Origin: Oscillospiraceae bacterium
Lineage (GTDB): Bacteria; Bacillota; Clostridia; UMGS1840
Direction: 5' to 3'
Assembly (NCBI GenBank): GCA_015068645.1
Contig: SVKD01000002.1
Coordinates: forward strand, 55,733-119,732
Length of the DNA stretch: 64,000 nucleotides
Under the pieces are notes generated by a model that saw nothing but the letters and a program-made list of their open reading frames with translations, ran no database searches and was not told the DNA's origin. Shown here piece by piece: positions 16,423 to 42,436 of this stretch (position 1 is the stretch's first letter; every line of letters starts with the position of its first letter). The translations under genes and the position numbers were made by a program.

Positions 16423-16520
16423 GTAGGGGACGGTGCCCACACCGTCCCGTTTTATCACAATATATTGCATAATGTTGTGCAATCTTCAAAAAACGGACAG
16501 ATGTGGGCATCTGTCCCTAC
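16423..16520. repeat. Inverted GTAG-REP doublet (REPIN-like)
   Basis: GTAGGGGACGGTGCCCACACCGTCCCG ... CGGACAGATGTGGGCATCTGTCCCTAC. Confidence 0.8.
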
Positions 16521-16583
16521 AAAACAAAACGATCACAATATCTACATTGGTAGGGGACGATTCCAAATGGAGGAGACGAAAAA

Positions 16584-16754
16584 GGCTTCCCCTTGAGGGG
16601 AGGCTCCGCCGCAGGCGGTGGTGAGGTGGAATTGAGGGGAACAGCCTTTAAAATGTTCCGAAAACACAACATTCGGTTCGTCGGAAAACGCCGAACCCTA
16701 CAACACCTCATCCGAGTTTGCTTCGCAAACCCACCTTCCCCTCAAGGGGAAGGC
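16584..16754. repeat. Inverted family B doublet enclosing a GTAG-REP (16676-16701)
   Basis: CTTCCCCTTGAGGGGAGG...GTGAGGTG and CACCTCATCC...CCTTCCCCTCAAGGGGAAGG. Confidence 0.75.
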
Positions 16755-16814
16755 TTTGTTGAAATGTGATACATAAAACCATAGTGCAGAAAAATGGATG
16801 TACCCATAAACTCA

Positions 16815-17059
16815 GGTGAAGAGAAGATGGCTCAGAACGGACAAACTGAGCCAAAGCTGTAGTACTGCGTACAGCATAACTGTACAGCGAGCGGTGAAAT
16901 TTACGGATTGGGCACAATTTTGTGCAGTCAACCTAAGCGCAGGGAAAATTGATGCAGAATTTGGAAATCGAAAGAAAACCATTGGTTTTCTCTTCCCGAA
17001 GCTGTACTGTGTGTACAGCGAGCGGTGAGATTCACGGATTGGGCACAATTTTCACAAGC
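16815..17059 (+). repeat. Two tandem family C copies
   Basis: Cores GCTGTA...GTACAGCGAGCGGTGA at about 16858 and 17000; TTTTCACAAGC terminus next to a terminator. Confidence 0.75.
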
Positions 17060-17096
17060 AAAAAAAGAGGAAACCCAATTGGATTTCCTCTCTTTT
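17060..17096. terminator. Intrinsic terminator of the surface-protein/peptide operon
   Basis: AAAAAGAGGAAA-CC...GG-TTTCCTCTCTTTT hairpin. Confidence 0.75.
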
Positions 17097-17126: not shown

Positions 17127-17288
17127 TTAGATCTGAGAACCTTCGTCTAACAGAGCCATGTTGTAAGTGGTGGTGATTTTACCATCAGTAGTGGTTACAA
17201 CAGCGGTTTCTAACGGATTGGTGTAAGATACAGCTTCATTAGCCTGTAAGGAAATAATTTCAACAGAAGGGCAAACATAATTTTTCAT
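17127..17288 (-). CDS. 53-aa peptide with YxxP (RRE-recognition-like) leader
   Basis: MKNYVCPSVEIISLQANEAVS-YTNPLETAVVTTTDGKITTTYNMALLDEGSQI; strong AAGGAGG RBS; last gene before a terminator. Confidence 0.75.
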   Translation of the reverse strand: MKNYVCPSVEIISLQANEAVSYTNPLETAVVTTTDGKITTTYNMALLDEGSQI

Positions 17289-17310
17289 CTCTATATATCC
17301 TCCTTTAAAA

Positions 17311-18165
17311 TTATTCAACTACTACGGTGAAGGTAGTGTCAGCGATGATAGTATCGTTAGCGAAGAAGTTTAATACTTTAGTACCAGTATGAACGTTTTC
17401 TAAAACGATTTCGAAGGTACCGTCCCAGTTACCGAAGGTGAAGGTGGTAACGCCGTCGTTGCCATCGGAAACGGTATCGCCGTCCATAGCGCCATAGTAT
17501 TTCTGAGCTCTTGCGCCTTCTACGGTAGATTCTTTGGTGAATTCTACACCGTAGTTGGTAACGGTAGCGTCAACTTTACCTGCACAGGTAATGGTGGTGC
17601 CAGCTGCAGTTGCAGAGAAGGCAGAACCACCATCAACTTCGAGAGTAAAGTAAGCGGGGTTATTTACAGAAGTAAACTTAGCACCAGCAGTCTGACCAGC
17701 TACAGTATAACCAGCAGAGGTGGGGATTTTAGATGCGGTTAAAGCTTTGTCACCATAAGCAAAATCAGCTTCGGTTAATTTGGTAGCTGCATCAACTTTG
17801 TTAACAGTGTAAGAAACTGCTAATAAAGTACCTTTTTCAGTAACATAATTACCTAAATCAGAGAAAGAACCGATCATTTTAATCTGACCAGGTTTATTCT
17901 GGGTGTCATTCAGAACACAAGTAGCAAATTTTTCGCCTAAAACTGCAGAACCTTCAACATAAGTTGCAGCTGTAGTTAACAGAATGGAGTTGAAACCAGC
18001 ACAAGCGTTAACATTGGTAACATAAACTTCAACAGTTGCAGTAGCGCCGTTATCTGTAATCACGGTATGCATACCACCGTCTTTATGAGGATCAGCAGCG
18101 AAAGATACCAGAGATAAAGAAGCCAGCATAGCCACTACTAATAAGAGTGAAAATACTTTTTTCAT
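17311..18165 (-). CDS. Secreted protein with a cohesin-like beta-sandwich domain
   Basis: Signal peptide ending SFA; VEVYVTNV..AGF...GQIKM...GTLLAVSYTV pattern resembles cohesin folds. Confidence 0.6.
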   Translation of the reverse strand: MKKVFSLLLVVAMLASLSLVSFAADPHKDGGMHTVITDNGATATVEVYVTNVNACAGFNSILLTTAATYVEGSAVLGEKFATCVLNDTQNKPGQIKMIGSFSDLGNYVTEKGTLLAVSYTVNKVDAATKLTEADFAYGDKALTASKIPTSAGYTVAGQTAGAKFTSVNNPAYFTLEVDGGSAFSATAAGTTITCAGKVDATVTNYGVEFTKESTVEGARAQKYYGAMDGDTVSDGNDGVTTFTFGNWDGTFEIVLENVHTGTKVLNFFANDTIIADTTFTVVVE

Positions 18166-18205
18166 TGTAATCAATTTCCTTTCAAAATTATAATTGAACT
18201 AAATC

Positions 18206-19129
18206 TTACAGATTGTCGTTAATGAAATCTGTACCGTAGTCATACAGAGACAGACCGTTATTTCCTAACAGAACGGCAATATCACCGCCATCGATGAATA
18301 AGTCATGTACAACGTCATAACCAGCAACAGTAGCGCCTTCAGTGATATCTAAACCGTTAACGTCCAACACTGTAGCAATGTCACTACCGTCGATAAAGAA
18401 GTCTTTTGCACCGATTACGTCACCGAACAGCATATCAACAGCGCCCATGTCTACGTCAGCATCTTCAACAGTTGCATATTCCATATAGGGTAATGCAGCG
18501 TCTCTGGTGATAACAACAGCATATGCGCCAGCTTCTAAGCCTTCGAATGCGTAGGTACCGTCAACGATTTCAACGGTTGCGATGGGATTGATGATGAGTT
18601 CATCACCATAGTTTCCAGCAAATTCCAGAGCTTCGTCCACAGTTACTAAGTGAGCAAAAGTTCCGTATGCTGCTTTGTAAGCGTCTAAATCTTCTTCTGC
18701 AACGATTTCGTCAGCAACTAACATATCATAGTAGTCAGCTTCTACGAAATTGTTAACAGAACCGCTTACGGTGTAGGTATCAGCTTCTTTTTCAAAGAAA
18801 ATGGTACCAACTTCCTGTTTGTCGATGGCTTCGCCACCCATAACAACTTTAACGTTTTCAGTTAATTCATCTTTTAACTGGAAAGTAAAGCTGTCTGCTG
18901 CTTCCTGATTGATGTACTGGATAGAACCAACATCGATAGTGTCGCCTTTGTAAGCAACGATGGTGGTCTGTTTACCAGCATTCGCAGTAGCAGCTTCGCT
19001 GGATAAAGTTGCGGTATAGGTAGTGCCGTCTGCGTTCAGAGCGATTTCATCAGAAAAAGCTGCAAAAGAAGTCATAGACATGCTACCAACCACTGCTAAA
19101 CCAGCGAGTAAAGCGATGAGTCTTTTCAT
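18206..19129 (-). CDS. Secreted protein ending in an X-module plus type II-like dockerin
   Basis: Signal peptide; GTYAFEGLEAGAYAVVITR module; duplicated GDVIGAKDFFIDGSDIATVL and GYDVVHDLFIDGGDIAVLL repeats. Confidence 0.7.
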   Translation of the reverse strand: MKRLIALLAGLAVVGSMSMTSFAAFSDEIALNADGTTYTATLSSEAATANAGKQTTIVAYKGDTIDVGSIQYINQEAADSFTFQLKDELTENVKVVMGGEAIDKQEVGTIFFEKEADTYTVSGSVNNFVEADYYDMLVADEIVAEEDLDAYKAAYGTFAHLVTVDEALEFAGNYGDELIINPIATVEIVDGTYAFEGLEAGAYAVVITRDAALPYMEYATVEDADVDMGAVDMLFGDVIGAKDFFIDGSDIATVLDVNGLDITEGATVAGYDVVHDLFIDGGDIAVLLGNNGLSLYDYGTDFINDNL

Positions 19130-19381
19130 AGTTTTTCTCCTTTACTTTTTTTCCGGGGGAAAAAACCCGGGTATATTTATTTTTTTTTAAACAAAGTAAT
19201 ATATTCATTTCTTTGATACCAAAGAATTTTTTTGGAATAGTCAAAGAAAGAATCGCCAAGTGTTTTTGCAATCCCCACATCCGTCTTCCTGCATCTTTAC
19301 TCCATTGCAAAACAACGGCGGAGATTTTAGATTTGTCTTTCGATAAGGAAAGAAATAAGCGGTATTTCTAAGATAATTTGA

Positions 19382-20653
19382 TTACTGAACGCTTGCGTAA
19401 GCGTAATCACGCAAGGTCAGCATCAGCATAATTTCAGACATTAACTGTTTTTCAACATCTTTTTCTGCATTCCAGGGATAGTTTGCAGGAGAAACGATTA
19501 CCATTCTCTGTGCATTTAACCACTGAACATCACAGTTTAATGCTTCTGCTACCGCACGCAAGGGAACGAAGGTTCTGTCCTGAGAAATCTCGGGAGCAAC
19601 GTCCATGGTTTTTTTCAAACCGTCATTGGTGTAGGTAGTGGAGCCAATCTGGAATACCAGTTTGGTTCTTTCATTTTCAATTAAAATTTCTTTGGTTTCT
19701 TCCACATAACTTACTTTGCATTTTAATTCTTCTGCAATGTAGCGCAGGGGAATCATAGTTCTGTCATCTTTAATATAAGGTTTAACGTCTTTGTTGTCTT
19801 TATCTACCCATTTTAAAGTACCGTTCCCAACAGTACCGTAGTTGTTAATCTGCAAAAATACTACGTTTTCTGCTCTTAATTGTTTACGGGTTACCATATC
19901 AAGATTTGCAGTGCTGTCGGAGCTGGTAATATCATTTACGCCAGTTACATCAGAAGAATCTGTTTTGCCATCGGGATAGTTAAATTCCACAGCACAATTC
20001 TGCATACCATAAGAATTAACTACCATCATGCCACCTGTTATCACATTGCTCTCTGCTAATTTAAATTCTACAGGAGCATCGGTTAATTTTTTCATAGTGA
20101 TTCGGATAATTCCCAAACCGTTTTCGTCAGCTAATGCCTGGAATTTATCAGATACAACAGAGTTGGGCGCAACCTTGGTATCTGTTATGCTGAACAATGC
20201 TAAAATACCGTTTGCTGCTTTGGAACCTTTGAAAGACTGCCAGTCAGCAATTTCTTCCCCGGTTTCTAAATCTTTTGCCACAACAGGACAAGATAAAGCT
20301 TCCATTAAATCAGTGGTAACTTCTTTGGTATCTTTATTTACAGGAGCAACTACTTCCGGGTCATAGGAAACGGTAGAAATGATACCTTTGTATGTAGCGT
20401 TATATAAAGTGATATCAACAGTGAAGAATCCGTCTGCATCGGGAGCGGATACATCAAATACTACTTTTGCCTTATCGGCTACCGGTGCTTCTGCAACGGG
20501 TGCATCTCCGGCTTCTTCGGAAATCAGCATGATATCTCCCTGAATTTCTTCAATTGTGCCATCTTCTACCGGCTCATTTGCAAATGCCATGCAGGAGCAG
20601 GAGAGGATTAATACCATCATCAATGCGAACAGTTTCTTTGCCATTGGAATCAT
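19382..20653 (-). CDS. Secreted type II-like cohesin fused to a copper amine oxidase N-terminal (stalk) domain
   Basis: YDPEVVAPV..DTKE, NGIL, GIIRITMKKL cohesin pattern; PYIKDDRTMIPLRYIAE and DRTFVPLRAVAEAL stalk motifs. Confidence 0.72.
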   Translation of the reverse strand: MIPMAKKLFALMMVLILSCSCMAFANEPVEDGTIEEIQGDIMLISEEAGDAPVAEAPVADKAKVVFDVSAPDADGFFTVDITLYNATYKGIISTVSYDPEVVAPVNKDTKEVTTDLMEALSCPVVAKDLETGEEIADWQSFKGSKAANGILALFSITDTKVAPNSVVSDKFQALADENGLGIIRITMKKLTDAPVEFKLAESNVITGGMMVVNSYGMQNCAVEFNYPDGKTDSSDVTGVNDITSSDSTANLDMVTRKQLRAENVVFLQINNYGTVGNGTLKWVDKDNKDVKPYIKDDRTMIPLRYIAEELKCKVSYVEETKEILIENERTKLVFQIGSTTYTNDGLKKTMDVAPEISQDRTFVPLRAVAEALNCDVQWLNAQRMVIVSPANYPWNAEKDVEKQLMSEIMLMLTLRDYAYASVQ

Positions 20654-20714
20654 ACCTTTCTGTTTGTAGTTTTCCTCAAAGAAAATTTCTTTCTCCGAGG
20701 GTTTCTCATCAAAA

Positions 20715-21347
20715 TTATCGGATATTGTTGCGACCTAAGGGGGAGAGATCCAAGCGAACCTCAGCCAAAACAGCATTTTCCGCCGCATTACCTTCCAACC
20801 AAGGAGAAGCAACATCGGTAACAACAACAATACGTTCTGCGGAAAGCCAGGTAACCGATTTGCCCAGCGCTTCTGATACGAAACGAACAGGAACAAAGGT
20901 TCTGTCTTCCAGAATTTCTGCGGCACAGTCCATCTCGAACAGTTCACCATTTAAAAGATAAGCTTTTTCGCCCACAGTGAGCTCCATCGCAATATCTCCT
21001 AAAGTGACGGTGATGCCACGGGTTTCTGCATTATAACCCACGGTTGCACCCAAGGATTCGGTTAAAAATCTTAAGGGAACCATGGTTCTATCTTCTTTAA
21101 TATAAGGAATTACATTTTTATTTGCCAGGTCAATCCAAGTGAGTTTACCATCGGTAACAGCAGCATAATTGCCGATTTGCAGAAAAATGGTATCTGCTTT
21201 CCGAAGACGGATTTCCTCCGGTTCCTCATCTGACTGCGCAGCAACAACGGAATCTGCTTCTGCAACAGAGACAGATTCATTCGCAAATACGCCAACTGAC
21301 ATACAGATTGAGAGCATCAAAACAAACAGCAAAATCTTCTTCACCAT
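20715..21347 (-). CDS. Secreted stand-alone copper amine oxidase N-terminal (stalk) domain protein
   Basis: Signal peptide; DRTMVPLRFLTESLGATV and DRTFVPVRFVSEALG; paralogous to the C-terminus of the 19382-20653 protein. Confidence 0.8.
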   Translation of the reverse strand: MVKKILLFVLMLSICMSVGVFANESVSVAEADSVVAAQSDEEPEEIRLRKADTIFLQIGNYAAVTDGKLTWIDLANKNVIPYIKEDRTMVPLRFLTESLGATVGYNAETRGITVTLGDIAMELTVGEKAYLLNGELFEMDCAAEILEDRTFVPVRFVSEALGKSVTWLSAERIVVVTDVASPWLEGNAAENAVLAEVRLDLSPLGRNNIR

Positions 21348-21397
21348 TGGTCAAACGCCTCCCCACCTCTAGACAATATAGCTATTTTACTATGATA

Positions 21398-21426
21398 ATT
21401 ATAGCACAGCCCATTTTTTTGGTCAA
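21398..21426 (-). promoter_or_regulatory. Sigma-A-type promoter of the surface-protein genes
   Basis: TTGACC-17 bp-TATAAT with extended TG. Confidence 0.65.
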
Positions 21427-21702
21427 CCCTTTTTCAAAAAAAAATGAAAATTATTTGTAAAATTCATTCGCATTTTTTTGTGCAAAATAACCAAAGAAAT
21501 TGCCACTTCTTATTTCGTTTTGCTGTTTCCACAAATTTTTTCCACAAAAGTTGGGGAATACAAATTTTGTGGCACATTTTCTGTTTTTCGTGTAGCAAAT
21601 TTTTCGGATTAGGACTTTTTTTGTGCAGATTGAGTAATTTTTTCGCAAAAAATTCTCCTATATATATAATATAATAGTATAGGATTTTTTGCTCTGTGAA
21701 TT

Positions 21703-23307
21703 TTATCCAACTGAAACAATTTTGCGGTTTTCCACAGCGATTTTTCTGTCTGCGATATCAAAAGCAGCCTGTTTATGAGAAATAATAATACAGGATTTGC
21801 CTTGCATTGCCTTTAAATTGGATAGCACCTTCTGTTCGGTGGCTTCATCTAAGGCAGAGGTACATTCATCCAGCAAAAACAGGGGAGCATCCAGGTACAC
21901 CGCTCTTGCAATGGCAAGTCGTTGCACCTGACCTTCAGAGAGACCAAGACCTTTTTCCCCTAAAACAGTGTCAAACCCTTCGGGAAGAGTTTGGATAAAG
22001 TCATAAATTTCAGCTGTTTTGGCAGCTTTTATAATATCATCCTCACGAACACCGCGATAAAAGGCAATGTTTTCCCGAATGGTGCCGGAAAGAATCATAT
22101 TCCCTTGCGGAACATAAGCAAGTTCCCGATAGCAACAAACTTCGCCGCTTTTGGGAGTGAGGATGCCCATAATCAATTTTAATAAAGTGGATTTACCGAT
22201 ACCGGAAATACCGGAAATGGCGATGAATTCTCCGTCTTTCATGGTGAAATCGGTATTGTCAAAAATTTCTTCGTCACCGTAGGAGAAGCTCATGTTTTTC
22301 ACTTCCACCACAGGTTTTTTGTTATCCACCAAAAACTTGCGACCGTCAGCAGACAGATTTTCCAGTTCCTGCAGACGTTCTGCAGATGCTAATGTGGAAA
22401 AATACTGAGGCACAATGGACGATAAATCTTTAAAAGGTGTTTGCACCTGATTTACCAGCTGCAAGATTGCCATCAGAGTACCAAAAGTCATCAGTCCCAG
22501 CGAAAGCTTCCACGCACAGTAGCCCATCGCGACATAGTAACTTGCAGTTAATGCTAAGTAGAACAAAATGTTCATCAGAATACTGATGTGATTGCGTTTT
22601 AAGGTAAATTTAAAATGCAAAAACTGAAATGTGCGGGACTCTTCCACCACTTTATCTTCTGCACGGTATGCTTTAATAACCAATAAATTCTGCAAAATTT
22701 CCTGCATAAAGGATTTGGTTTTCCCGTCTGTTTCCATACATTTTTTGTGCAGCTTTTTCATACGGGATGAATACAGCCGAGCCGTCAACAAAATGAAGGG
22801 TGCCAGAATCAGACAAATGGTTGCCAACAGCCAATCCAGCTGAAACATTTCATAAAAGCTTAAGAAAATCCGAACCAGCAGGGAAATCAAATTGGGGACT
22901 AACAGCATAACCCCCGTCACCACCACGTTTACATCGGAATGGATACGGTTGATAAGTTCCCCGGAGTGAATATTGCTGACTTGTTGCCAATCACGCTCTA
23001 AACAGGTGCGAAACACATGTTCTTTTAAGCGGATTCCGTATTGCCCGCTAACACGGGCGTTGTATAAAGAATAAAAAATCTGACTTGCCAAAAGCAAACC
23101 AAGCATCACAAAAAGACGGATAACCTGGGCGGTTAAATCACCTTCCACGGAATGAGAGGCGATATCCAAAAGGTCTTTGGATACGATGGCGAACCGCACG
23201 CCAATAGTTGACATCACAACACCAAGCAAGGTTAAAAGAGCCAGTTTCCCATACATTTTGGGCCCGGTTCTTTTTAAAAGCCATTTTAATTGACTGTTCT
23301 TCTTCAT
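21703..23307 (-). CDS. ABC exporter (fused permease and ATPase, no C39 peptidase domain)
   Basis: N-terminal transmembrane domain; GISGIGKS Walker A, LSEGQVQR signature, LLDECTSALD. Confidence 0.9.
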   Translation of the reverse strand: MKKNSQLKWLLKRTGPKMYGKLALLTLLGVVMSTIGVRFAIVSKDLLDIASHSVEGDLTAQVIRLFVMLGLLLASQIFYSLYNARVSGQYGIRLKEHVFRTCLERDWQQVSNIHSGELINRIHSDVNVVVTGVMLLVPNLISLLVRIFLSFYEMFQLDWLLATICLILAPFILLTARLYSSRMKKLHKKCMETDGKTKSFMQEILQNLLVIKAYRAEDKVVEESRTFQFLHFKFTLKRNHISILMNILFYLALTASYYVAMGYCAWKLSLGLMTFGTLMAILQLVNQVQTPFKDLSSIVPQYFSTLASAERLQELENLSADGRKFLVDNKKPVVEVKNMSFSYGDEEIFDNTDFTMKDGEFIAISGISGIGKSTLLKLIMGILTPKSGEVCCYRELAYVPQGNMILSGTIRENIAFYRGVREDDIIKAAKTAEIYDFIQTLPEGFDTVLGEKGLGLSEGQVQRLAIARAVYLDAPLFLLDECTSALDEATEQKVLSNLKAMQGKSCIIISHKQAAFDIADRKIAVENRKIVSVG

Positions 23308-23324
23308 GCCGTGTATCTCCAAAT

Positions 23325-23792
23325 TTATTTTTTAGGATTCGCCCTAGCGTTTCGCAAACGGAAATTCACAATTTTCCAGCGATAAGGCATCAAAAGGTGC
23401 CAGATGCGAACATAGAACCAATAGCCGAGGCCTTTTGGTTGTTTCACCTTCCCCCAACGGGTAAACTCGGTGACAACGCCTAAAATCTGCTCCCGACGCA
23501 CCGGAGGCTCGGTTTTTAGCTCATTGTCTCCCGCAATCAGGTAAGTGCCGTTTTTACAAACTTTCAGCACACGGTGCAGAATGTATCTGCCGTCATCCCG
23601 TTTATGAAAGGTAATATCATATTTTTTGATGTGTTTGGCAGGGGACAGGACTACCGTGTCACGTCTGGTGTGAAACAGAGGATACATACTGTTCCCCGTT
23701 ACTGTCATACGGACGGTGTCTCCCCGACGGAGTGCTTCCTCGGTAACTGCTCCCATCAGTGCCACATCTGCTATTTTTCTTGTCGGTTCCAT
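23325..23792 (-). CDS. S24/S26-family peptidase (Ser-His type)
   Basis: TGNSMYP nucleophile, YILHRV, GDN motif; no transmembrane helix before the catalytic Ser. Confidence 0.85.
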   Translation of the reverse strand: MEPTRKIADVALMGAVTEEALRRGDTVRMTVTGNSMYPLFHTRRDTVVLSPAKHIKKYDITFHKRDDGRYILHRVLKVCKNGTYLIAGDNELKTEPPVRREQILGVVTEFTRWGKVKQPKGLGYWFYVRIWHLLMPYRWKIVNFRLRNARANPKK

Positions 23793-23795
23793 AGC

Positions 23796-24053
23796 TTATT
23801 CCATTAAATTATTGTCAGAAAGAATTTTTAAAAATGCTTCGATATCCCGTTTTGCGGTGGCTTCGTCGATATCGTATTCCGCAGTCATTTTGGCGCAAAG
23901 ATGGTCCATATCACAGTCATCACCCAAAAGCTCCCACAAGAAAGCACCGGTTTCGTTCACGGTGATCATCGCAGTAAAATCTATCTGGCCAACGGGAATC
24001 ACAATATAGCTGCCTGCCACTTCTTTGAGCATAAAGCCGTCTTTTAATTTCAT
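23796..24053 (-). CDS. PqqD-family RiPP recognition element (stand-alone)
   Basis: 85 aa; VNETGAFLWELL...EYDIDEATAKRDIEAFLKIL.DNNL winged-helix pattern. Confidence 0.88.
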   Translation of the reverse strand: MKLKDGFMLKEVAGSYIVIPVGQIDFTAMITVNETGAFLWELLGDDCDMDHLCAKMTAEYDIDEATAKRDIEAFLKILSDNNLME

Positions 24054-24080: not shown

Positions 24081-24866
24081 TTACCGAAAAATACGTTTGA
24101 AAAAGCCTTCCGGCTCCGCCTGATAATAGTTGCTGGCGAATTTTTCGATATATTCATTATCTAATAACAAATGACTGTTCACATTCATGTACTGCGCAAA
24201 TTCATCCGACACTTTATGATTAAGATAGTCATACGCTTCTGCCAGATTGGGGGAACGCTCAGACTGATTGTGACAATCGCTTCCCATCAGGTGGATGGCG
24301 TCTTTTTCAACCATTTTAAGTACGTATTTACGCATTTTTTTATCTAAAATAGATTCGGCGTTAATCTGAAAATACACATCCATTGCCGCAAGTTTATTAA
24401 TCTTTTTCTTATCCACGTGAGGATAACGCTCAATATGCGCAATCACGGGAATCAAGTTACAATGGGCAATCAGCGCATAAATAGAATCAAACATCCAATC
24501 GTACCAAGCGGTGGAATAAGGCATTTCCACCAAAATGTATCGGGTACCTTCGATGGCGAGCTTCTCAATACCGTTAATTTCCGAAAGGTCACAGTTTAAA
24601 AGCACTTCTGCACCCAAACGAAGATCGGGAAACGTTACTCCTTTTTCTTTGGCAAATTGCCGAAGCTCCATGGCACGTCTGTTGCGTTTGGCAATAAATT
24701 CATCAATGGAAATATTTTCAATATCCTTGCAATGAGGAGTGCAAATCACCGTTTCCACATTCTGACGGTATTCTTCCTCCAACATTTTTAAGGAGGTTTC
24801 AATATGCTCGGGACCGTCATCAAATTTGGGAAGAATATGAGAATGCACGTCTACGTATTTCAGCAT
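24081..24866 (-). CDS. CpsB/CapC PHP-family tyrosine-protein phosphatase
   Basis: DVHSHILP.FDDG, TPH, AHIER, GSDCHN. Confidence 0.9.
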   Translation of the reverse strand: MLKYVDVHSHILPKFDDGPEHIETSLKMLEEEYRQNVETVICTPHCKDIENISIDEFIAKRNRRAMELRQFAKEKGVTFPDLRLGAEVLLNCDLSEINGIEKLAIEGTRYILVEMPYSTAWYDWMFDSIYALIAHCNLIPVIAHIERYPHVDKKKINKLAAMDVYFQINAESILDKKMRKYVLKMVEKDAIHLMGSDCHNQSERSPNLAEAYDYLNHKVSDEFAQYMNVNSHLLLDNEYIEKFASNYYQAEPEGFFKRIFR

Positions 24867-24911: not shown

Positions 24912-25841
24912 TTATTTTTCTTTGGAGTCGCGCTTTCTCACGGTGGCTTTTTCACCGGCGGAAACTTGACCGCCCTGTCTCATTTTCTTGAGCAACTCAG
25001 CTCTTTCTTTGGTACGGGAATCTTTTGCTTTGTTGGAATATTCGTAAGAGCTGTAAGAACCGCTATAGTTACCGTAATAACGGCGTTTGTAGTAACCGTA
25101 TCTGCCGTAACCCATATGGTAGCGATAGTAAGAGCCGCCGTCTTCCACGGCATCATTTAAGAGAAATCCCAACACTTTTGCGCCTGAGAATTTCAGTTTT
25201 TCCAATGCTTCCTGCAAAGACTTATGGTCAGTTACTCCCTGACGGGCAACCATAACGGTACCGGATGCAGAGCTTGCCAATAGCAGCGCATCCGCCAGAA
25301 GATTTACAGGGGGAGTATCAATTAAAATATATCGGTATTCTTTCTTAAGCTCGGTGAGCATGTCCTGCATTTCCTTAGAGGATAACAACTCTGCAGGGTT
25401 GGGAGGAATATGACCGGAAGGCATAACAAATAAGTTCTCATACTGGGTAGCTTGAATTGCTTCCTTCACCGGACAAAAACTACGAAGTGCGTTGGACAAG
25501 CCTGTTTTAGAGACAATACCAAATACTTTGGCAACACGGGGCTTTCTTAAGTCACAGTCAATCAGCAGCGTTTTCTCACCGGTTTGTGCAAAGGCAATCG
25601 CCAGATTAATGCAGTTGGTGGTTTTGCCTTCCATGGGCCAGGAACTGGTTACGATGATGACGCTGCTTTCTTCTTCGGGCAGAGCAAAACGAATATTGGT
25701 TCTGCCGATTTTATATGCTTCACGAATACTGAAGTTGGATTTATCGTCAATTAAGTGGGTGGAACGGGTAGCGCGACGAGGCGATTCTTTTTTGCGGGAA
25801 CGAAGCAGGGAGCCTACCGTGTGATTATTTAACTTTTTCAT
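24912..25841 (-). CDS. CpsD/CapB bacterial tyrosine kinase
   Basis: EAYK..RTNI, TSSWPMEGKTT, IDCDLRKP, LIDTPP, C-terminal Tyr cluster. Confidence 0.92.
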   Translation of the reverse strand: MKKLNNHTVGSLLRSRKKESPRRATRSTHLIDDKSNFSIREAYKIGRTNIRFALPEEESSVIIVTSSWPMEGKTTNCINLAIAFAQTGEKTLLIDCDLRKPRVAKVFGIVSKTGLSNALRSFCPVKEAIQATQYENLFVMPSGHIPPNPAELLSSKEMQDMLTELKKEYRYILIDTPPVNLLADALLLASSASGTVMVARQGVTDHKSLQEALEKLKFSGAKVLGFLLNDAVEDGGSYYRYHMGYGRYGYYKRRYYGNYSGSYSSYEYSNKAKDSRTKERAELLKKMRQGGQVSAGEKATVRKRDSKEK

Positions 25842-26632
25842 ACTGATTTCCCTCCTTCTTCCGGATTTTCAGGCTCAGACTGATAATGAGAGCCGTAGTT
25901 GTAACTGTAACCGTATCTTCCGCCGTAACGACTGTGAGAAGAGCCTTCGTGGTGCAGATTGGGAATAACCGAAAGCACCGGAAGCTTATACTGCTCGCTA
26001 AGCTCTTCTTTGGATTTTACGGAAGTGTTCATCAGCTCGAACACAAATGCCATACCGCAGGCTACCACTAATCCCACCAGAACACCGATGATGGTATTCT
26101 GAGAAACATTGGGGGAGCTGGGCTTGGTGGGAAGATTTGCCTTGTCCACCGTTTCCACCGCACCGGCACGAACCACACGGATAATTTCCATGGGTGCCAC
26201 CTGCTCAATCGCATCTGCAATAATTTTTGCGTGTTCCGCATCGGTGCAGGAAACCGCAACTTCAAATACTTCGGTTTCTTCCAGAACGTCGGAAGAAATC
26301 ATCCCTCTTAATTCGTTGGCAGTGTAGTTCACGCCAAGACGACTGATTTTGTTGGAAACAGTTTCCAAAACCGTGTCACTTTTTAAAATAACCATATAGG
26401 TATTAACCAGCTTGGCAGACAGGTTAAAGTCATTCACGTTCATTCCCTGATTTAAGGGGTCATTTTTTTCGTTATACACATAAAGAGCAACTTTAGCGGT
26501 GTATTTTTTCGGCAAAACATACTGAGAATAAGAAAATGCAATGATGCCTCCGATTAAAGCCATCGTTACAATCAGCCACAGTCGTTTTAACAGTATTGTG
26601 ATAATCTCGTTGACGGTAAAATTCCGTTCCAT
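25838..26632 (-). CDS. CpsC/CapA (Wzz-like) transmembrane kinase modulator
   Basis: Two transmembrane helices, PKKYTA, PTKPSSPN before the second helix; overlaps the kinase start. Confidence 0.9.
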   Translation of the reverse strand: MERNFTVNEIITILLKRLWLIVTMALIGGIIAFSYSQYVLPKKYTAKVALYVYNEKNDPLNQGMNVNDFNLSAKLVNTYMVILKSDTVLETVSNKISRLGVNYTANELRGMISSDVLEETEVFEVAVSCTDAEHAKIIADAIEQVAPMEIIRVVRAGAVETVDKANLPTKPSSPNVSQNTIIGVLVGLVVACGMAFVFELMNTSVKSKEELSEQYKLPVLSVIPNLHHEGSSHSRYGGRYGYSYNYGSHYQSEPENPEEGGKSV

Positions 26633-26694: not shown

Positions 26695-26723
26695 ATTATA
26701 GCATGTGTTTGCCCAAATGTCAA
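26695..26723 (-). promoter_or_regulatory. Consensus sigma-A promoter of cpsC-cpsD-cpsB-pqqD-peptidase-ABC
   Basis: TTGACA-17 bp-TATAAT with extended TG. Confidence 0.75.
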
Positions 26724-41360: not shown

Positions 41361-42092
41361 TTATTCAGCTGCAGCTTCGTCGGTTTCTTCTTCCATTGCC
41401 TGAGCTGCGCCTTCTCTGCCTTCGATCATAGCGTTTGCCATGGTTTCAGCAATCAGTTTAACAGCGCGGATCGCATCGTCGTTACCGGGGATTACATAAT
41501 CCACTTCATCGGGATCACAGTTGGTATCTACGATTGCAACAACGGGGATATGCAGTTTCTTAGCTTCTAAGATTGCATTTCTTTCTTTTCTGGGGTCAAC
41601 AACAAACAGAACGCTGGGGAGCTTTTTCATGTTTTTGATACCGCCCAGGTATTTTTCTAATTTTTCTCTTTCTAAGTTTAATTTGATAACTTCTTTTTTG
41701 GGAAGTAAATCAAAGGTACCGTCTTCTTCCATTTTGTTTAACTGGAAGAGTCTGTCAATTCTTTTACGGATGGTTTTGAAGTTGGTTAACATACCGCCTA
41801 ACCATCTTGCGTTTACATAGTACATACCAATTCTTTCAGCTTCTGCTTTTACAGCGTCTGCAGCCTGTTTTTTGGTACCAACAAACAGGATTTCACCGCC
41901 CTGAGCTGCGATATCTCTAACAAAGTAGTAAGCTTCTTCTACTTTTTTCAGAGTTTTCTGCAGGTCGATGATGTAGATTCCGTTTCTTTCGGTGAAGATG
42001 TAGGGAGCCATTTTGGGGTTCCATCTTCTGGTCTGATGACCGAAGTGAACGCCGGCTTCCAATAACTGTTTCATGGAGATTACGTTGCTCAT
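41361..42092 (-). CDS. rpsB: 30S ribosomal protein S2
   Basis: [46 protein letters not shown]. Confidence 0.98.
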
Positions 42093-42104
42093 GATAAATT
42101 TCCT

Positions 42105-42220
42105 TTCTGGTTGTTCCTCGGCGCCGCGTAAAGCCTTGAAAATGCCTTACTTACAAACGAACAAAGCCATAAAAAAATTTAACTTTGTCACCGGGTTTGT
42201 ATAAGGGCGCGTGCGAATTC
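42105..42220 (-). ncRNA. rpsB 5' leader (t44-like S2 autoregulatory RNA)
   Basis: Transcript begins ...CGCACGCGCC and ends GCGGCGCCGAGG before the RBS, at the position known for the rpsB/t44 leader. Confidence 0.5.
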
Positions 42221-42226
42221 TCGAAC

Positions 42227-42255
42227 ATTATAGCACACCTTTTTTCAAAAATCAA
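42227..42255 (-). promoter_or_regulatory. rpsB promoter
   Basis: TTGATT-17 bp-TATAAT with extended TG. Confidence 0.7.
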
Positions 42256-42436
42256 GTTTTTTTGGTAATTTTTTTTATTTTTTTGAAATTTCTCTGTAAA
42301 AAGTATCCTCCCCAAGCCTTCTTTTTATATTACAAATTCAATACAATCACTAAAAAATAGTTGAAATTTCAAAAGAAATATGATATGATATTATTGAAAT
42401 GAATGCAACGCTACAGAAAGAAAGGAAGGATACCTA

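Follow-up and report, generated by a model that had tools for sequence, protein, structure and literature searches.

A recognition element, leader peptidase and exporter behind capsule genes of an Oscillospiraceae bacterium: probable parts of a dispersed LPP-type peptide pathway

The 64,000-nucleotide stretch of an Oscillospiraceae bacterium analysed here (assembly GCA_015068645.1, contig SVKD01000002.1, positions 55,733 to 119,732; hereafter the window) encodes, behind the capsule-regulation genes cpsC-cpsD-cpsB, a trio made of a PqqD-type recognition element, a Ser/His peptidase and an ABC exporter, and further downstream a 53-amino-acid (aa) open reading frame (ORF) with a YxxP motif. The initial annotation had read these genes, and the lack of a membrane anchor in the S24/S26-type peptidase, from the letters of the DNA; coordinates, family matches and hydropathy agree with it (Table 1). 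We think that the trio is probably the recognition, cleavage and export module, with counterparts in LppB, LppS and LppD, of a clostridial branch of LPP-type ribosomally synthesised peptides with post-translational modifications (RiPPs), and that the pathway is dispersed over several loci. Linear polyphosphorylated peptides (LPP) are made by the cluster lppA-K-B-S-D-N of Paenibacillus alginolyticus DSM5050 (Popov et al., Nat Commun 2026, PMC13381572), in which A is the precursor, K an HprK-like kinase, B a discrete RiPP recognition element (RRE), S an archaeal-type signal-peptidase-like leader peptidase, D an MsbA-like exporter and N an NTP transferase; such clusters often lie inside capsule loci (PMC13381572). 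Their precursors have an N-terminal YxxPxVLxHQxIxFETxxS and a variable C-terminus, and LppK polyphosphorylates Ser3 of the core (PMC13381572). In vitro, LppS (catalytic S29, H68 and D93) cuts after T-1, only when the leader is presented by LppB, in whose crystal structure Y-16 and P-13 of the leader are held via N33, Y60, D70 and F74 (PMC13381572).

The trio, the cps genes and the surface-protein and peptide genes all lie on the minus strand, in two units. The gaps of the first are reported as at most 27 nucleotides (nt) overall, with 27 nt between cpsB and pqqD and 3 nt between pqqD and the peptidase gene, and the promoter-like site 5' of cpsC is, by its sequence, the probable start of one cpsCDB-pqqD-S24-ABC transcription unit. 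A gap of 355 nt, in which a motif scan found no conserved YxxP ORF, separates the ABC gene from the second unit, which comprises p210, p423, p307, p287 and the 53-aa ORF. Among NCBIfam models the exporter matches MsbA best (6e-69), under that model's cut-off.

Table 1. Features of the two units in the window, from high to low coordinates; Lpp names give the suggested counterpart in the Paenibacillus cluster.
Feature	Coordinates	Strand	Evidence
Promoter-like TTGACA-17-TATAAT with TG extension, 5' of cpsC	26695..26723	-	12/12 consensus positions; consensus match only
cpsC-like Wzz/chain-length determinant, transmembrane partner of tyrosine kinase	25838..26632	-	Pfam Wzz 1.3e-14, GNVR 8.9e-5
cpsD-like polysaccharide tyrosine autokinase	24912..25841	-	NCBIfam TIGR01007 2.4e-54, above cut-off
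cpsB-like phosphotyrosine phosphatase (PHP family)	24081..24866	-	Pfam CpsB_CapC 3.9e-48
PqqD-type stand-alone RRE, LppB-like	23796..24053	-	Pfam PqqD 3.4e-17
Soluble Ser/His signal-peptidase-like leader peptidase, LppS-like	23325..23792	-	Pfam Peptidase_S24 1.6e-5; NCBIfam archaeal-type signal peptidase I 2.2e-9
Half-size MsbA-like ABC exporter, LppD-like, without C39 peptidase domain	21703..23322 (or from ATG 23307)	-	ABC_membrane 1.1e-27, ABC_tran 3.9e-23
Promoter-like TTGACC-17-TATAAT with TG, 5' of surface-protein/peptide unit	21398..21426	-	11/12 consensus positions
p210, secreted, copper-amine-oxidase N-terminal ('stalk') domain	20715..21347	-	Pfam Cu_amine_oxidN1 1.1e-32; seen in RNA contigs
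p423, secreted, Cu_amine_oxidN1 domain at C-terminus	19382..20653	-	Pfam 1.5e-31
p307, secreted, C-terminus dockerin-like	18206..19129	-	no Pfam match
p287, secreted, directly 5' of peptide gene	17311..18174	-	classical signal peptide
53-aa LppA-like precursor peptide (candidate)	17127..17288	-	YxxP ORF, Thr-rich tail
Intrinsic terminator hairpin and U tract, end of surface-protein/peptide unit	17061..17096	-	-20.8 kcal/mol, z -5.18, 0/200 shuffles equal or better

The residues G33, S35, M36, P38, H73, R74, G88, D89 and E95 of the peptidase are invariant in 43 homologues, and its profile aligns to SEC11C and to bacterial signal peptidases in the Ser, His and GDN motifs. An AlphaFold model of high confidence (pLDDT 92.9) consists of an N-terminal helix (residues 10-22), which is amphipathic, a beta core and two C-terminal helices of basic and aromatic character; the top Foldseek matches are SipA, SpsB and LexA, that is, the signal-peptidase/LexA fold. 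Because no stretch of 19 residues exceeds a hydropathy of 0.53, the protein has no membrane segment anywhere and hence no anchor at either end, and the trans-side membrane anchor of a housekeeping type I signal peptidase was found neither in the hydropathy scan nor in the model. Compared with LppS the identity is 24%; in the alignment the catalytic S29, H68 and D93 of LppS have S35, H73 and E95 as their counterparts, the third position being Glu95 here and Asp93 there. Measured against the clusters of the published sequence similarity network (SSN), the window peptidase is 36% identical to a member of cluster 4, 33% to cluster 9 and 24-26% to cluster 1, and all 43 clostridial peptidases compared (that of the window and 42 others) are nearer to clusters 4 and 9 than to cluster 1. 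Clusters 4 and 9 were listed in that work and not studied, and the cluster-4 RRE was scored as 'other', not as LPP (PMC13381572).

Recognition of the leader can be approached through the PqqD protein, which is 33% identical to LppB over 52 aa and in which, according to the alignment, N33, Y60, D70 and F74 occupy the positions that they have in LppB; among 31 PqqD homologues the conservation of Y60 and D70 is 90% or more. The initial annotation had supposed that this stand-alone RRE binds a YxxP leader and presents it to the neighbouring peptidase, and the retention of the four leader-holding residues argues in favour of the binding step. Its PDB sequence matches, TbiB1, PbaB1 and LppB, are all at E ~1e-3 to 2e-4 with TbiB1 the best, and its best NCBIfam matches are lasso PqqD models. 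Together with the YxxP motif, which is common to lasso leaders, these matches would suit a trio that is the remnant or an accessory of a lasso-peptide pathway, with PqqD as B1. We regard this as very improbable, and rejected it, given that the assembled genome (all but ~3%) contains neither a B2 peptidase nor a full-length cyclase: there are no matches to PF13471 (Transglut_core3, lasso B2), and searches for PF00733 (Asn_synthase) gave only two fragments, one in a frame of 339 aa and one in a frame of 378 aa, which score 21-24 bits and span 40-60 positions of the model. Furthermore, the scores against the lasso PqqD models, 33-35 bits, are far under cut-offs of 70-80. By analogy with LPP the product would have to be linear, since there is no cyclase and no B2, and the serine peptidase would remove the leader. 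The suggestion of the initial annotation that an S26-type peptidase replaces lasso B2 in a cyclase-free pathway of RRE, YxxP peptide and ABC exporter thus has an experimental parallel in LppB, LppS and LppD (PMC13381572). Elsewhere in the genome, at C5:26116-28483 (C numbers denote contigs), a 114-aa stand-alone PqqD protein (Pfam 3.9e-10) is encoded directly 3' of a transporter of the OPT oligopeptide type (Pfam 4.5e-98); this joins an RRE-like protein to a peptide importer, with no enzyme nearby.

The 53-aa ORF begins with MKNYVCPSVEIISLQANEAVSY, continues into a Thr-rich tail and ends its putative core with KITTTYNMALLDEGSQI. Several observations establish that it is a real gene. First, a strong ribosome-binding site (AAGGAGG) lies 9 nt 5' of its ATG. 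Second, it is followed by a terminator of its own. Third, the genome holds a paralogue of 77% identity at C7:97371-97532. Fourth, the peptide, the paralogue and four orthologues from the genus are under purifying selection, with pairwise ratios of non-synonymous to synonymous substitution rates (dN/dS) of 0.06-0.38. Fifth, RNA contigs cover positions 17206-17288, the 5' part of the ORF, at a depth of ~60, and positions 17134-17580; they reach from the 3' end of p287 into the peptide gene, and in one run a contig of 640 nt holds the whole peptide ORF and the 3' end of p287. These are Logan contigs of gut metatranscriptomes, that is, of mixed communities, and they report presence, not quantity; within this scope they are consistent with transcription of the peptide gene. 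The genes of the trio are barely represented among them.

Eleven peptides from different families have M1, Y4, P7 and E18 invariant and E10 and a Tyr of the core nearly so; the leaders of the clade follow the form K-Y-x-x-P-x-Φ-E-Φ-Φ-x-Φ-x-x-x-E, and a core motif [IV]TT[YF] near the C-terminus is kept across families, the core not being hypervariable. In the register of LppA, E18 stands at E-2, Y4 at -16 and P7 at -13. Cleavage after A19 is predicted because E18, counting from the Tyr, falls on E-2 of LppA, and a conserved small residue at position 21 provides an alternative predicted site, so that the leader would comprise residues 1-19 or 1-21. Both sites fall within ANEAVS, the segment near which the initial annotation had placed the cut.

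We consider the 53-aa peptide very likely to be the substrate of the trio. A whole-genome scan for short ORFs with Y-x-x-P-x-[LIVMF]-[EDQ], of the kind that the initial annotation had proposed, was combined with a peptide-profile search, and these found only two real peptides, that of the window and its paralogue on C7; the rest were spurious frames. In other genomes YxxP peptides adjoin the trio or the kinase described below, namely in loci L034, L036, L037, L038, L041, L042, L048, L061 and L066 and in relatives from the genus, and the order PqqD, peptidase, ABC, secreted protein, small YxxP ORF, HprK-like kinase, S-layer homology (SLH) protein recurs in L034, L036, L038, L041, L042, L048, L061 and L066. 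The conservation of such an ORF beside such trios, on which the earlier proposal depended, thus extends to at least ten divergent genomes and is joined by phyletic co-occurrence with the peptidase.

The phyletic tests covered 61 relatives, 36 peptidase-positive and 25 negative. Wherever the peptidase occurs it is single-copy, and it is found throughout the genus (11/11), the sister genus (5/5) and the next family (9/9), with identities of 75-91%, ~50% and 34-42%, respectively; this stepwise fall is compatible with vertical descent. Matches to the peptide profile occur in 30 of the 61 relatives, all of them peptidase-positive (30/36 vs 0/25), and when only the other families are considered the contrast is 8/11 vs 0/25 (Fisher p = 5e-6, kinship ignored). 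It is conceivable, but in our opinion quite unlikely, that the trio matures some other substrate, either an unrecognised peptide or a protein of the capsule machinery in the same operon, and that the YxxP ORF is a surface-protein partner that happens to resemble a leader. In favour of this are the separate transcription unit of the peptide gene, its company with a p287-type C-terminal domain also at the second locus of this genome, where the trio is missing, and the conserved motif of the core, which is unusual for a RiPP. This view must nevertheless cope with the strict co-occurrence of peptide and peptidase, with a leader register that matches LppA, with homologous peptides that in other families stand immediately between exporter and kinase, and with the outcome of the motif scan and profile search, which offer just these two peptides as substrates.

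Concerning the modification of the peptide, the initial annotation had reported that no modifying enzyme is visible. This holds for the ORFs of the window locus and fails for the genome, which encodes an HprK-like kinase on C3 and a PF14907 nucleotidyltransferase on C8. The kinase gene is the only one of its kind in the genome and is intact (C3:37914-38912). Its family, with proteins of ~290 aa and an invariant SGTGK(S/T)TH P-loop, has weak matches to ScmC and HprK-related kinases; the best NCBIfam matches are to ScmC, at 2e-6 to 3e-8. A profile search against PDB sequences gave nothing useful, and the fold search with the model (pLDDT 92.1) gave HprK/P and the ATP-dependent phosphoenolpyruvate carboxykinase (ATP-PEPCK). 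The kinase is present in 34/36 peptidase-positive and 2/25 peptidase-negative relatives. It is intact and unlinked to the trio in 11/11 genomes of the genus, lying on a different contig in every assembly of the genus and the sister genus, and it adjoins PqqD and the peptidase in most other families. A locus search seeded with the kinase alignment gave at least 584 kinase-family loci, and CpsB, CpsC or CpsD recur beside related cassettes elsewhere. The nucleotidyltransferase, likewise unique in the genome (C8:20521-21744; 78.6 bits, above cut-off) and present in one copy in every genome of the window's genus, comes last among the biosynthetic genes of a Wzx-type polysaccharide cluster, with VanZ after it.

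As to the surroundings of the kinase gene, in the region C3:37171-40398 it has the gene of an SLH protein (501 aa) on one side and that of a polytopic membrane protein (240 aa) on the other, the membrane protein with a weak, sub-threshold match to Acyl_transf_3 (1.2e-5); in other families an SLH protein accompanies the kinase in many cases and a membrane protein of ~225 aa in several. Some sister cassettes (L055, L056, L064, L073 and L088, from Ruminiclostridium cellobioparum, Peptococcaceae and other Clostridia) include in addition a ScmE-like radical SAM/SPASM enzyme; their Cys-rich precursors, one to three in number, have the leader MKxYxKPxFExxxLxxEERxAGSC, and the cassettes lie in polysaccharide loci beside CpsB.

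Modification in trans, one of the three outcomes that the initial annotation had left open (besides an unmodified and a Thr-glycosylated product), is favoured by the presence of kinase and nucleotidyltransferase elsewhere in the genome and by the way in which the kinase tracks the peptidase over the 61 relatives. The same inventory could be read otherwise: the peptide might lose its leader and be exported without modification, as a bacteriocin or a signal for instance, and the two enzymes might have other targets, for example polysaccharide or S-layer components. We find this unlikely. The locus does lack a modifying enzyme, the expected acceptor Ser is not conserved, the kinase gene sits with that of an SLH protein and the nucleotidyltransferase gene in a polysaccharide cluster, and in Paenibacillus some cleavage takes place without the kinase (PMC13381572). 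Against this stand the unequal occurrence of the kinase in genomes with and without the peptidase and its adjacency to PqqD and peptidase in most other families. In the reference system, moreover, the unphosphorylated precursor is a poor substrate of LppS (PMC13381572). Finally, there is no immunity gene, and within the genus the core diverges little, which does not suit a bacteriocin in an arms race.

The mechanism which we infer by analogy with the Paenibacillus system, and which covers leader binding, cleavage site, phosphorylation and export, would run as follows: 1) the precursors are the 53-aa peptide and its C7 paralogue, and PqqD would take up their K-x-Y-x-x-P-x-V-E segment as an extra beta strand; 2) the unlinked HprK-like kinase probably phosphorylates a Ser of the core; 3) the unlinked PF14907 nucleotidyltransferase may extend the phosphate on the core; 4) the soluble Ser35/His73 peptidase would cut the presented leader in the cytoplasm, 16-18 residues past the Tyr (...ANEA|VS|Y...); and 5) the ABC transporter would export the core.

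A number of observations weigh against this reading of the trio as an LPP-type module acting on the 53-aa peptide. Between the trio and the peptide gene lie 4.4 kb and four genes, and the peptide gene belongs to another transcription unit, which has a near-consensus promoter-like site to itself. Both reference comparisons yield low identity (the 24% to LppS and 33% to LppB given above), and the RRE of the window is equally distant from LppB, PbaB1 and TbiB1, that is, not nearer to LppB than to lasso B1 proteins; the genome also holds a second PqqD-family protein, the one on C5. With the published LPP leader the window leader shares only YxxPxV and E-2, the L, HQ, I, F, T and S of that logo not being kept. 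S21, the counterpart of the phospho-acceptor Ser, is Ala in the paralogue and in the orthologues of the genus, and for this reason the site of modification, or modification itself, is uncertain. The statistics of the phyletic tests ignore kinship, the lineages tested are also those that went into the peptide profile, and the RNA contigs derive in part from close relatives rather than from reads of the window strain.

The precursor genes have a peculiar company. In nearly every case examined they lie 3' of genes for proteins with signal peptides (180 to 2013 aa), at a spacing of 18-90 nt, and in some genomes there are up to seven or eight peptide-profile matches over several contigs. In the window genome the paralogue is 22 nt 3' of the gene of a 603-aa secreted protein (C7:97555-99366) and p287 is likewise 22 nt 5' of the window peptide; p287 and this otherwise different protein share their C-terminal ~100 aa at 58% identity. 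A C-terminal domain common to p287 and the proteins that precede the peptides in other families was considered and discarded: the hhalign match reached a probability of 2% (E 0.022) over a 23-column motif (xTxF[AG]Kx...YG[IV]), and as it is not significant we claim no such shared domain. Further upstream, p307 ends in two dockerin-like repeats, FIDGSDIATVLDVNGL and FIDGGDIAVLLGNNGL, and its homologues at family level (BLAST 1e-20 to 1e-23) end in canonical dockerin repeats, GDVDGDGTINATDAG. Inspection revealed a TTIVAYKG..IQYINQEAAD motif common to the N-terminal domain of p307 and the secreted proteins of L034, L036 and L038, and a tblastn search with the proteins of these three loci gave no match in the window genome. 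By shared motif and gene order, the N-terminal domain of p307 would be the counterpart of the secreted proteins encoded ahead of LPP-like peptides in other families. At L130 (genome G019, C8:1-16000), three tandem giant secreted proteins (2013, 1508 and at least 639 aa) are alike in their C-terminal ~600 aa, and each is followed, 18 nt on, by a near-identical 47-aa YxxP peptide, MKNYIKPSIDVL..ITTFEYISE. On the other side of the window peptide, 3' of its terminator, positions 16500-17050 contain no ORF of at least 100 aa; short frames with similar translations ('...LQGEGF...', 'MCPIR.FHRSLY') recur in or near this interval and on C3 at ~41600-42400, which suggests a dispersed repeat.

The coupling to cpsCDB, the single-copy conservation with stepwise identity and the position of the precursor genes behind those of surface proteins point to a function in the cell envelope rather than to an antibiotic. 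A more specific idea, which we put forward tentatively and hold to be rather unlikely, is that the LPP-like machinery of gut Oscillospirales-type Clostridia is a housekeeping device for envelope assembly and not a system of conflict or antibiosis. The precursor would then be co-transcribed with a secreted surface protein, lose its leader, perhaps receive a phospho-(glyco)-modification and be exported; once outside, the [IV]TT[YF] segment of the core might offer the C-terminal domain of the surface protein a partner or anchor strand or, alternatively, be a peptide handle linking that protein to the Cps-made polysaccharide. Envelope assembly would account for the tie of recognition element, peptidase and exporter to the CpsC/D/B tyrosine-kinase module, for the SLH protein that accompanies the kinase, for the place of the nucleotidyltransferase gene at the end of a polysaccharide cluster and for the many LPP-like operons elsewhere that appear to be 'precursor-less'.

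The analysis has several consequences: 1) a clostridial sister branch of LPP-like systems exists and, with its at least 584 kinase-family loci, is large; 2) precursors can lie far from the enzymes and directly behind surface-protein genes, the enzymes being themselves dispersed; 3) the lineage of the window has a single-copy system coupled to capsule-regulation genes, from which a testable, envelope-centred hypothesis follows; and 4) gut genomes with orphan RRE/peptidase/kinase operons can be searched for the 'missing' precursors by a practical rule.

How the window system relates to known ones depends on the component that is compared. With the housekeeping signal peptidases I of the SipW/Sec11 type, the peptidase shares the GxSMxP Ser motif, the LHR His motif, the GDN motif, a profile that aligns to SEC11C and bacterial enzymes and a fold matching SipA and SpsB, whereas it differs from them in having no N- or C-terminal transmembrane segment and in the coupling of its gene to that of PqqD. 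The phosphorylated lasso clusters of Bacillota, those of paeninodin and pseudomycoidin (PadeK/PsmK, PsmN, B1, B2, C, D), resemble it in the stand-alone B1-type RRE for a [Y/W]xxP leader, the HprK-like kinase, the PF14907 nucleotidyltransferase and the ABC exporter, and depart from it in the B2 cysteine protease and the macrolactam cyclase, both of which the window genome lacks. The likeness to the SynChlorMet (Scm) cassette consists in a kinase that matches ScmC and in the sister cassettes, where a ScmE-like radical SAM enzyme joins the K-S-A genes and PqqD; the window locus has neither a radical SAM enzyme nor a Cys-rich core.

The closest parallel is LPP itself, for which the published survey was centred on Bacilli, with a patchy distribution there, and describes as unknown both what LppN does and which biological role LPP play (PMC13381572). 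The window system has, as LPP does, a discrete RRE, an anchorless archaeal-type Ser/His leader peptidase, an MsbA-like exporter and no cyclase; the HprK-like kinase and PF14907 nucleotidyltransferase are present in its genome, although in trans and not in cis; and its precursor has an N-terminal YxxP leader with Glu at -2, in a setting of capsule and polysaccharide loci with VanZ nearby. The differences are 1) that the peptidase does not belong to SSN cluster 1 and the RRE lies outside the LPP clade as that family was delimited; 2) that the pathway is split over at least three loci and conserved in this form through a bacterial family; 3) that the B-S-D genes are co-operonic with cpsCDB; 4) that the core keeps [IV]TT[YF] and precursor genes trail those of secreted proteins; and 5) that the system is single-copy and its peptidase identity declines as taxonomic distance grows, instead of a patchy occurrence, in a genome that has no lasso cluster. 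Since it differs in its peptidase (nearest to clusters 4 and 9), the distance of its RRE, its leader logo and its acceptor Ser, we file the window system as an LPP-like sister variant rather than as LPP in the strict sense.

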